The notes under the pieces are model-generated. The model was given only the letters and a program-made list of their open reading frames with translations, was not told the origin of the DNA and searched no databases. This document shows, one piece after another, positions 8,197-56,001 of a stretch of 64,000 bases of DNA. Source of the DNA: Lachnospiraceae bacterium (GTDB lineage: Bacteria; Bacillota; Clostridia; Lachnospirales; Lachnospiraceae); contig JAQVCT010000012.1 in NCBI GenBank assembly GCA_028689655.1, positions 2,753 to 66,752 of the forward strand, given 5' to 3'. The stretch's first letter is position 1, and every line of letters begins with the position of its first letter. Position numbers and translations under genes: made by a program.

Positions 8197-8349
8197 GTAA
8201 CTATTCAGAACCCCATGCGCAAAATCGCTTCTTCGAAGCTATTCTTTTGCTTATGTGGTTACTTCGCCAAATAAATTCACAAAAATCAGCTAAATCATGC
8301 AAGCATGATTCGCATATTTTTATGAATTTGCTTGGCTCTGAATAGTTAC
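8197..8349. repeat. 153-bp MITE/REP-like element with 16-bp terminal inverted repeats (TIRs) and nested internal palindromes
   Basis: The left end gtaactattcagaacc matches the reverse complement of the right end ggctctgaatagttac at 15 of 16 positions. Internal palindromes are aatcatgc-aa-gcatgatt and aaattcacaaaaat...atttttatgaattt. Partial copies lie at 16228, 18288 and 31057. Confidence 0.6.
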
Positions 8350-15526: not shown

Positions 15527-15568
15527 ACATCAGTCCATTGTCGAAGACAATTTTAGATGGACTGATGT
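15527..15568. other. 12-bp-stem hairpin after livF (acatcagtccat ... atggactgatgt) with the inner palindrome ttgtcgaagacaa
   Basis: The perfect inverted repeat is read directly from the sequence. There is no T-tract, so terminator function is uncertain. Confidence 0.5.
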
Positions 15569-53139: not shown

Positions 53140-54243
53140 TTATAAATTTTCGAACAGCATTTGTAGTACATGGTTGGCGTATCTGGAGAAATCATCACGC
53201 TGCTTTTTGAATTCATCGGTGAGTTCAAAATACAACTCTTTACTGCGGTAATCTTCTTTAAAAAATGGCTGGAACAAGACATCCCACTGTGGCAAATAGG
53301 AGGATGTCTTTTTCGTATAGCAATTGGAGGCAGTTGCCTTGATGCGGTGGTCATGGTCCACAAAATGGGCAACAGACTTATGGATGGAACAATCTTCCAG
53401 GGGAAGATAATAATAATCCCTGTAATTGGCATAGAAATATTTTAATTCACCCTGAAAGATGGGAACTTTTAAGGTGCCTTCCATATCAAAACCGGTAAAA
53501 TAGCAATTATTCACACCCTGTGACACCGCCACAGGAAGTGGATTTTTGAAACGCAGCTTCATCAATACTTCCTGCTTTTTATCACCGACATAATCCGTAT
53601 AGTAGTTAGCCTGTACTTTTGTGACCCTCACTGTATTCAGGAATAGATCACAGTAGGACAGAACGGGCAACAGTGAGACAAGTCCCTGAATATCATCCGC
53701 ATTGTGCAGCAGTAAGATCTGTAAATTGGATTCGGAAGGTGCCTTTACATATTCGTGATAAACGCTGATGAGTTCCCCGCCGTGAAAGGTGTCCTCACGA
53801 TTTACATTCAGAAAGATTTCAATGGTCTTCTGCTTACAGTTTGGCAATTTCAGAAATTCTTTAAAAGGAGCGATACGGCGGTAGAGATCCAGCGCCTCAA
53901 AATGATCAAAGGTATCTGGAAGCCCATATTGTATTGCTTTCTGCTGCAGATAGGGGATATCGAAATTATTTCCATTAAAGTGAACAAGGTAGGAATAATC
54001 CTGGACAAAGCGGAAAAATTCCCTTAATACCTGGACTTCGTCATCGTAATGATCAGCGAACCATTGAATCAGATGAAAGGAATTATTTTTCTGGTAAATA
54101 CAGCCGATGAGATAGAGGGAAGACCCCTTTGCTGTAAAACCGGTGGTCTCAATATCTATAAATAATGTTTTCTCTAACTCCATTGTCTCGTCCAATGGAT
54201 AATTTAATTTTATATTGGATAATTCTGACTTGATTATTTTCAT
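53140..54243 (-). CDS. RNase H-fold 3'-5' exonuclease-like protein (YprB-like)
   Basis: LFIDIETTGF (DxE exonuclease I motif), VHFNGNNFD and LLHNADD. The RBS AAGGAG lies upstream. Confidence 0.7.
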   Translation of the reverse strand: MKIIKSELSNIKLNYPLDETMELEKTLFIDIETTGFTAKGSSLYLIGCIYQKNNSFHLIQWFADHYDDEVQVLREFFRFVQDYSYLVHFNGNNFDIPYLQQKAIQYGLPDTFDHFEALDLYRRIAPFKEFLKLPNCKQKTIEIFLNVNREDTFHGGELISVYHEYVKAPSESNLQILLLHNADDIQGLVSLLPVLSYCDLFLNTVRVTKVQANYYTDYVGDKKQEVLMKLRFKNPLPVAVSQGVNNCYFTGFDMEGTLKVPIFQGELKYFYANYRDYYYLPLEDCSIHKSVAHFVDHDHRIKATASNCYTKKTSSYLPQWDVLFQPFFKEDYRSKELYFELTDEFKKQRDDFSRYANHVLQMLFENL

Positions 54244-54275
54244 AGGTACTCCTTGAGATTATAATTTTTTATTTG

Positions 54276-54512
54276 ATGGGAAATTCCTCTGAAATTTCCC
54301 ATTGGCAGTACAAGAGTGTAGAAGACACTTTGTTCTTTAATAGGAAATTCCTTCGAAATTTCCTATTGGAAGCAGCTTCGATACTGCTAAACTTGTAATA
54401 CTTCCAAAGGAAGTATTATCCCGTAGGGATTATGCATCTTATAGATGCATAACATTGCCCAAAGTGTCAGTAAAGTAGTGTCGACATAAGAGTGTCGAAG
54501 ACACTTTGTTCT
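54276..54512. repeat. Cluster of at least six perfect or near-perfect hairpins, plus two internal direct repeats, in the yprB-like/rnfC divergent spacer
   Basis: A1 54276-54302 atgggaaatt/aatttcccat. A2 54339-54367 aataggaaatt/aatttcctatt. D 54396-54418 taatacttcc/ggaagtatta. E0 54418-54430 atccc/gggat. E 54430-54452 ttatgcatct/agatgcataa. B1 54312-54336 and B2 54488-54512 are 25-bp direct repeats containing agtgtcgaagacact. Confidence 0.85.
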
Positions 54513-54681
54513 CAAATAGATACTTTGATAATAGCATAATTTTCAAATTAGCAGTAGTATTTTTTGGAGAAAAATAGTATATTTAATAGGTAATGCATGG
54601 AGGTTTTTAGTAAATCTGCTGTATTCATTGAGGTATGTTTTTCAGGACATATTTAAAATAGGGAAGGAAGAAGGTTAGAAA

Positions 54682-56001
54682 ATGGCAAAATTTACATTTG
54701 TTGGTGGAATACATCCATATGATGGTAAAGATTTATCAAAAGATAAACCGATCAAAGAAATCCTGCCAAAGGGCGATTTATATTATCCACTTTCTCAACA
54801 TATTGGTGCACCTGCCACGGCGATTGTAGCAAAAGGTGATCATGTATTGACCGGACAGAAAATTGCTGATGCGACAGGCTTTGTATCCGCACCAATTTAC
54901 GCCACTGTATCGGGAACAGTAAAAGGAATCGAACCACACAGAATTGCGGTGGGAGACACCGTGAATTGTATTGTGATCCAGAATGATGGTCTCTATGAAG
55001 AAGTGAACTATGAGGCAATTGAAAATCTGTCAGACATCAGTAAGGAAGAGATCCTGAATCGAATCAGGGAGGCTGGTGTTGTAGGAATGGGTGGTGCAGG
55101 ATTTCCTACCCATGTGAAATTATCTCCCAAGGAACCGGATAAAATTGAATATGTAATCGTGAACTGTGCAGAATGTGAGCCTTATCTCACATCTGATTAC
55201 CGTAGAATGTTAGAGGAACCGGAGAAACTGATTCAGGGCCTGAAAGCCTCGCTGCGCCTGTTCGACAATGCCAAAGGTGTTCTGGCAGTGGAGGATAATA
55301 AGCCAGATTGTATCGCATTATTGAAAAAGCTCACAAAAGAGGAACCGGATATCAGCGTGGCAGCTTTGAAGACGAAGTATCCACAGGGATCAGAACGTCA
55401 ATTGATCTATGCGGTTACGGGACGTGCCATCAATTCCACCATGCTGCCGGCAGATGCAGGCTGTGTAGTGAATAATGTAGACACGGTGGTGGCTATTTAT
55501 AATGCAGTTATGTTAGGAAGACCATTGATGCAGAGAATCGTCACTGTTACAGGGGATGCCATCAATGATCCAAGAAATTTTGCAGTGCGTGTAGGTACTA
55601 TTTATGAGGAATTGATTGAGGAGGCAGGGGGATTTAAGACAGAGCCGGAGAAGATCGTCTCCGGTGGTCCCATGATGGGATTTGCTCTATTTGATACGAA
55701 TGTGCCGGTTACCAAGACATCCTCGGCGTTACTTTGCATGACAAAGGATGAGGTGGCAGCATATGAACCAAGTGCATGTATCAACTGCGGTATGTGTGTG
55801 GAAGCATGTCCGGGGCGTATTATCCCCAGCCGTCTGGCAGATTATGCAGAGCATGGCGATATGGAGCAGTTTGAGGCACATAACGGTATGGAGTGTTGTG
55901 AGTGCGGATGCTGTAGCTTTGTCTGTCCGGCAAAACGACAGTTAACACAGTCCATCAAATCCATGAGAAAAATGGTATTGGCTGAGAGAAAGAAAAAATA
56001 A
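54682..56001 (+). CDS. rnfC: Rnf electron-transport complex subunit C
   Basis: GMGGAGFPTHVK, SGGPMMG, and two 4Fe-4S motifs CINCGMCVEACP and CCECGCCSFVCP. Confidence 0.9.
   Translation: MAKFTFVGGIHPYDGKDLSKDKPIKEILPKGDLYYPLSQHIGAPATAIVAKGDHVLTGQKIADATGFVSAPIYATVSGTVKGIEPHRIAVGDTVNCIVIQNDGLYEEVNYEAIENLSDISKEEILNRIREAGVVGMGGAGFPTHVKLSPKEPDKIEYVIVNCAECEPYLTSDYRRMLEEPEKLIQGLKASLRLFDNAKGVLAVEDNKPDCIALLKKLTKEEPDISVAALKTKYPQGSERQLIYAVTGRAINSTMLPADAGCVVNNVDTVVAIYNAVMLGRPLMQRIVTVTGDAINDPRNFAVRVGTIYEELIEEAGGFKTEPEKIVSGGPMMGFALFDTNVPVTKTSSALLCMTKDEVAAYEPSACINCGMCVEACPGRIIPSRLADYAEHGDMEQFEAHNGMECCECGCCSFVCPAKRQLTQSIKSMRKMVLAERKKK

Follow-up and report, generated by a model that had tools for sequence, protein, structure and literature searches.

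The spacer between a YprB-like exonuclease gene and the divergently transcribed rnfC, in a 64-kb stretch of Lachnospiraceae DNA (the window, by which we mean the whole stretch analysed), is crowded with short perfect palindromes, and the question raised by this locus is whether they serve the two neighbouring genes or arrived there independently of them. A preliminary description of the window had placed three explanations side by side, namely a structured 5' UTR or non-coding RNA controlling Rnf expression, a multi-operator region for dimeric regulators, and a BIME-like cluster of REP hairpins. The last of these proved to be the right kind of answer. In our judgement the array consists, with good probability, of two copies (one mini, one long), set head to tail, of a dispersed repeat that is non-coding and rich in hairpins and that landed between yprB and rnfC where the spacer varies.

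The length of 438 bp first given for the spacer is correct (54244-54681), and Pfam domains identify the genes on both sides (Table 1). The unusual density of stems was also confirmed: four perfect stems of at least 9 bp lie within 237 bp (54276-54512), compared with a mean of 0.007 and a maximum of 1 in 2000 dinucleotide shuffles, and the whole window holds nine perfect hairpins with stems of that length. These four are A1, A2, E0 and E, with stems of 10 to 11 bp; the remaining two of the six or more perfect palindromes originally counted in about 240 bp, D and the core of B, have stems of only 5 bp. A1 and A2 had been described as copies of one unit, and the compensated G-to-A and C-to-T difference between them is real, with a loop of 7 nt and not 6. 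B1 and B2 are indeed direct repeats, 91% identical, and the repeat spans 32 nt rather than 25. Variants that have a simple CAAAGTGTC-loop-GACACTTTG hairpin at the right end show that the palindrome in B forms the tip of a more extended helix at that end. The proposed kinship with a sequence after livF was not sustained: TTGTCGAAGACAA near 15538 lies within the loop of an unrelated terminator-like hairpin where blastn gives no match, and the genome contains 134 13-mers within 2 mismatches of a TTGTCGAAGACAA-type sequence.

Table 1. Features of the yprB-rnfC spacer and its flanks, in positions of the window
Feature	Position	Strand	Description
YprB-like 3'-5' exonuclease gene	53140-54243	-	ORF; Pfam RNase_H_2 PF13482, E 2.4e-33; flank outside the repeat
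T-rich left flank TTTTTTATTT	54265-54274	+	Site type preceding repeat copies
Repeat copy 1, 62-nt mini form	54275-54336	+	Hairpin A1, right-end hairpin B1, TTCT; both ends present
Hairpin A1	54276-54285 / 54293-54302		10-bp perfect stem, 7-nt loop
Repeat copy 2, 174-nt long form	54339-54512	+	A2, D, optional module, right-end helix, TTCT
Hairpin A2	54339-54349 / 54357-54367		11-bp perfect stem, 7-nt loop
Hairpin D	54371-54388		AGCAG/CTGCT, 5-bp stem
Optional internal module	54391-54456	+	E0 54396-54418, CCCGTAGGG 54420-54428, E 54430-54452; missing in the short form
Hairpin E0	54396-54405 / 54409-54418		10-bp perfect stem, 3-nt loop
Hairpin E	54430-54439 / 54443-54452		10-bp perfect stem, 3-nt loop
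Right-end helix of copy 2	CAAAGTGTC 54460-54468 / GACACTTTG 54500-54508	+	RNAalifold consensus of the genome's own copies
B core	54492-54504		GTGTC-GAA-GACAC, 5-bp stem
Conserved rnfC-upstream box TAGTATTTTTTGGAGAAAAATAGTATATTTA	54555-54585	+	Outside the repeat; wider block 54524-54586
rnfC	54682-56001	+	Pfam RnfC_N, Complex1_51K, SLBB and Fer4 domains; flank outside the repeat

The source genome, that of an uncultured member of the Lachnospiraceae (70 contigs, 3.41 Mb, 42.7% G+C, 94% complete), was searched with the individual hairpins, as the preliminary description had suggested, and many unrelated loci were matched. Exact matches number 13 for A2, 15 for E0 and 7 for E, and blastn with the spacer recovers 53 repeat loci, those being the window locus and 52 others, nearly all of them between ORFs. 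Since the hairpins stand at many unrelated loci, the array is not specific to rnf. Both ends are present in 31 copies, which fall into three size classes: a long form of 173-177 nt (10 copies), a short form of 113-117 nt, plus one of 130 nt, that has no E0/E block (17 copies), and a mini form of 62-101 nt (4 copies). When long and short copies are aligned the optional block is cleanly present or absent, and partial copies are simple truncations. The long copy of the window is 88-96% identical to 10 other long copies (blastn) and is separated from the mini copy by TT. A second copy with A and B only lies at C26:23722, and head-to-tail arrays like that of the window were found also at C58 and C53. 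The array at C58:23022-23313 (G000) comprises 2.5 tandem copies and stops 25 nt short of the start codon of a gene for a HAD-type hydrolase, so that a truncated copy forms the 5' region of this gene, and at C12:7368-7488 (G000) a copy occupies almost all of the 152-nt spacer before glmS.

The boundaries of the repeat are sharp in the aligned copies, (TTT)AATAGGAAATT... on the left and ...GACACTTTGTTCT on the right. These ends are not complementary, and the aligned copies thus have no terminal inverted repeats; neither was a target duplication seen, k-mers of 3-6 nt shared by the two flanks being no commoner than in shuffled pairings. The repeat lacks, in these respects, two defining characters of a MITE. 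The foot of the left hairpin reads TTT-AATAGG in the aligned copies, with no GTAG-type tetranucleotide. The repeat is modular: a hairpin forms its left end (ATAGGAAATT-loop-AATTTCCTAT), another hairpin comes next, then a block of three hairpins that may be missing, and last a right-end helix with TTCT behind it. A different, MITE-like family with 16-bp inverted ends had been noted in the window at 8197-8349, and is unrelated to this one as judged by the blastn search with the spacer, which gave no match there.

The sites at which copies are found have much in common. In all 31 complete copies the left flank is T-rich and ends in TTT, and in about 20 of the 31 a strong hairpin stands directly before the copy, being either a terminator or the end of another copy to the left. 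The flanks fold with a mean dG of -14.3 kcal/mol upstream and -7.9 kcal/mol downstream of copies (p 0.0035). Orientation is the same as that of the upstream ORF at 40 of 53 loci, and only 3 of the 53, the window's included, lie in divergent spacers. To the left of the window copy there is the T-run TTTTTTATTT alone, without a preceding terminator hairpin. The repeat thus sits behind T-runs, mostly those of intrinsic terminators, and in the orientation of the T-run. As its own right end is terminator-like, a hairpin with a T-rich tail, it can itself be followed by new copies in the same direction, which gives head-to-tail stacks like the one in the window.

Related genomes offered empty orthologous sites. 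In about 70 of 80 related loci yprB and rnfC are likewise divergent, and in the three closest the spacer measures 164-208 bp, against 438 bp here, and has no repeat. Alignment of the relatives' spacer with the window is confined to the part next to rnfC (54513-54681), and the 248-bp array therefore looks like an insertion. In seven congeners the region following rplQ contains the terminator and the convergent gene, and the repeat is missing. A search of 40 relatives did not find the full repeat, a 36-mer taken from it had no exact match in 185,579 species genomes (one per species), and an exact search with the YprB protein for further contigs of the same strain found none on record. Near-identical copies within one genome and none in sister species form the pattern of amplification and not of an inherited gene, and the repeat would accordingly be one that amplified in the source species and probably spreads as mobile DNA. 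Against mobility it counts that no presence/absence polymorphism within a species was found.

An rnf- or yprB-specific control region, whether as 5' UTR, ncRNA or operators for dimeric regulators, is in the light of these comparisons highly improbable. The array does lie in a divergent spacer, 170 nt upstream of rnfC, and a sigma-70-like TTTTCA-17-TATAAT (54237-54265) is directed into it, though such matches are just as numerous as expected from shuffled sequence. However, relatives with the same gene pair manage without the array, and across the 80 related rnfC loci the covariance model R1 described below has no match upstream of rnfC and a single match elsewhere, far from that gene; both results speak against such a control region, as does the recurrence of the same hairpins at 52 unrelated loci, and a loop that varies from 5 to 9 nt between genomes fits a rigid dimeric operator poorly. 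The truly conserved sequence upstream of rnfC, moreover, lies outside the array. This box (pattern TAGTAT-N15-TAGTATATTTA) is situated about 100 nt upstream of rnfC and 43 nt downstream of the array, and is conserved in the closest loci, L013-L015. Of 63 regions upstream of rnfC in Lachnospiraceae, 33 contain its core, and the box is unique in the source genome. It is the real rnf-linked signal and is likely an rnf promoter or operator, though it does not look like a canonical Rex box. Insertion of the repeat upstream of the box would have been a matter of chance, and the repeat itself presumably has no dedicated role in Rnf expression. Because the window copy lies where two divergent promoters are expected, it may still affect the expression of yprB or rnfC locally, as a side effect.

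The repeat has relatives well beyond its own genome. It shares its left hairpin (ATAGGAAATT...AATTTCCTAT) and its right end (hairpin plus TTTGTTCT) with a multi-hairpin element of about 140 nt. There the gene terminator and T-run are followed by an extended palindrome, an A-run and a GGATGCGCA box, and the box by GC-rich helices and a terminal hairpin, then TTTGTTCT. The same architecture is present in named Lachnospiraceae, and cultured carriers include Mediterraneibacter hominis NSJ-55, Lachnoclostridium phytofermentans, Faecalicatena contorta and Anaerosacchariphilus hominis NSJ-68. Of 201 Lachnospiraceae genera, 20 have multiple copies of the left-hairpin stem pattern TAGGRAATT-N5-9-AATTTCCTA, whereas a reversed control pattern has about zero matches in the same 201 genera. 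The loops vary, and their length differs between genomes (5 to 9 nt). When species genomes were scanned for the hairpin, more than 118 stretches were found, nearly all from Lachnospiraceae and other Clostridia, named isolates included. Plasmid and phage collections and viral contigs gave no matches, or just two at chance level.

A covariance model (R1) was built from a cross-genus alignment of 20 sequences, and up to 15 candidates per genome were scored. On this basis matches are present in at least 117 of 201 Lachnospiraceae genera, the strongest of them full-length and above 90 bits, and the source genome has at least 15 copies (best E 2.5e-10). In the window R1 aligns over its full length to 54330-54511 on the + strand (38.2 bits, E 2.2e-8) and matches hairpin A1 of the mini copy as well. 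The defining features of the model are all found in the window copy, these being the left palindrome with the ATAGGAAATT stem, the internal helices, and the terminal hairpin followed by TTTGTTCT. Outside the Lachnospiraceae only weak, palindrome-like matches were obtained. The repeat of the source genome is a diverged, AT-rich branch of a Lachnospiraceae-wide element of about 140 nt with the same two ends.

Structure is conserved across this superfamily. On the 20 aligned sequences 95.6% of cells are paired, compared with 81.4% after shuffling and 37-49% when the partners are slid, and double changes are seen in 17 of 32 pairs; ten pairs in the core of the hairpin do not vary, which follows from the way the search pattern was constructed. 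Covariation through all of the helices is more typical of functional RNA than of transposon ends. The elements might accordingly be functional structured RNAs, transcribed together with the upstream gene or independently of it, that serve for example to protect 3' ends, as back-up terminators or as a multi-copy small RNA, and whose hairpins are under selection at the RNA level, and with such a role one could connect the strong covariation in all five superfamily helices, the resemblance of the right end to an intrinsic terminator and the orientation shared with the upstream gene at the 40 loci noted above. We nevertheless consider this unlikely. The elements are positioned behind canonical terminators and not before them, the palindrome has no visible conserved promoter, and Rfam 15 gave no credible match for the window region (permissive thresholds) or for 12 cross-genus loci (gathering and permissive thresholds). 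Near-identical copies within a genome that are missing from sister species also speak for amplification and not for an inherited gene. As to the strand, the sense strand folds slightly better in 25 of 32 of the cross-genus set, but the antisense strand does so in 28 of 30 of the source genome's own copies; with the asymmetry opposite in the two data sets there is no consistent strand signal. A variable loop on a conserved stem suggests recognition as a folded single strand rather than as a duplex operator, and we infer that it is an enzyme that would recognise the repeat in this form.

A Y1 HUH transposase, acting on single-stranded hairpins at the replication fork, is one candidate for such an enzyme, and would make the repeat a REP/RAYT-type or IS200/IS605-derived (PATE) element. 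The lack of terminal inverted repeats and of target duplication, with hairpins at both ends, agrees with this origin, as may the distribution of R1 copies in the complete 5.1-Mb genome G172, where those at 0.16-2.18 Mb are all on the + strand (5/5) and those at 2.72-4.73 Mb all on the - strand (9/9), so that 14 of 14 are sorted by chromosome half; this sorting may reflect replication or gene orientation alone. In the source genome, on the other hand, orientation agrees with GC skew for 39 of 51 copies, which is no better than the 86% for genes, and the discordant cases split 5 against 5. The Y1/RAYT transposase family itself (PF01797) is absent from the source genome (94% complete) and from G017, which carries at least 15 copies. 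In carrier genomes that do have Y1 genes the hairpin does not flank them, and genomes with Y1 genes are not preferentially those with the hairpin. The hairpins of the two ends, furthermore, differ from each other and have no GTAG foot. Taken together, we regard a Y1-moved element as rather improbable. Other candidate movers were sought among the neighbours. No autonomous parent element or insertion sequence with the same ends was found in the source genome or beside 90 hairpins elsewhere, the gene between the C58 copies is the HAD hydrolase, and no neighbouring gene recurs in the source genome or at the 90 cross-genus loci, where only generic families were seen.

Comparison with known systems places the repeat close to several of them. 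Like REP, BIME and REPIN sequences it consists of short extragenic palindromes in dozens per genome, mostly at gene 3' ends and in clusters or arrays, with a species-specific sequence and with stems kept by compensatory changes. REP and BIME elements are, however, known from Proteobacteria and moved by RAYT, whereas the present host is a Firmicute without a RAYT/Y1 gene, and the repeat forms composite units of 62-177 nt with unlike ends and no GTAG foot, arranged head to tail and not as inverted doublets. The BOX elements of Streptococcus pneumoniae (boxA-boxB(n)-boxC) are similar in their fixed end modules, optional internal modules, intergenic position and strong predicted folding, and likewise have no known mover. 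This resemblance is one of architecture only. The end modules of the repeat are not mutually complementary and it settles behind terminators and T-runs; no sequence relation between the two is known.

With IS200/IS605 ends and PATEs the repeat has in common the absence of terminal inverted repeats and target duplication, the subterminal hairpins, and oriented insertion by a short sequence. Its two end hairpins are, in contrast, unrelated in sequence, neither a Y1 transposase nor a parent element was found, and its target is a T-run of variable sequence and not a fixed tetra- or pentanucleotide. Group II introns of class C likewise home just behind intrinsic terminators and in the orientation of the terminator, but these are ribozymes of several hundred nt or more that usually encode a reverse transcriptase, whereas the repeat has 62-177 nt and no Rfam intron match. 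Defining characters of each of the REP/RAYT, MITE, PATE and class C intron families, in the last case a ribozyme, are thus wanting in it, and we place it among the small non-autonomous hairpin repeats. It is most likely a selfish, probably mobile element of REP/BIME/BOX-like type that settles behind T-runs. More tentatively, it could belong to an undescribed Lachnospiraceae-wide class of mobile elements, multi-hairpin DNAs of about 60-180 nt that home to T-runs behind terminators without target duplication and are moved by an enzyme other than RAYT/Y1, possibly a host nuclease reading the single-stranded ATAGGAAATT hairpin.

With regard to rnfC this is an ordinary finding, in that the hairpins are not an Rnf switch and a false lead has been removed. 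The repeat family itself merits a proper description. The Lachnospiraceae are a dominant family of gut bacteria, and in more than half of the genera sampled there are many copies of a structured element, adjacent to terminators, that is not in Rfam and is unexplained by any known transposase, and of which no description was found in the literature searched on REP, MITE or terminator-targeting repeats of Lachnospiraceae. Repeats of this kind cause assemblies to break and are open to misreading as riboswitches or small RNAs. They can also bring in promoters and terminators or move them apart, and may be the sign of a new mode of moving DNA.

Some minor observations concern the sequence of the elements. 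The right-end palindrome GTGTCGAAGACAC contains TGTCGAA, in the window at 54492-54498 and in about 21 other copies in the genome. This heptamer is the consensus of the Spo0A 0A-box, and the repeat thereby scatters sites of this kind through the genome; a reading of the right end as a Spo0A box was dropped, as the right ends of other genera do not have TGTCGAA. At L118:535-645, just after a T-box leader, about ten tandem units of 11-12 nt with ATAGGAAAT, a half-site of the stem, stand directly before a complete hairpin element, and may represent slippage or an array of protein-binding half-sites. At L093:~1470-1550 (G041) the ATAGGAAATT hairpin is at the tip of a GC-rich palindrome with 27-bp arms, directly after a gene stop, a position that suggests the loop of this gene's terminator as the place where it is embedded.
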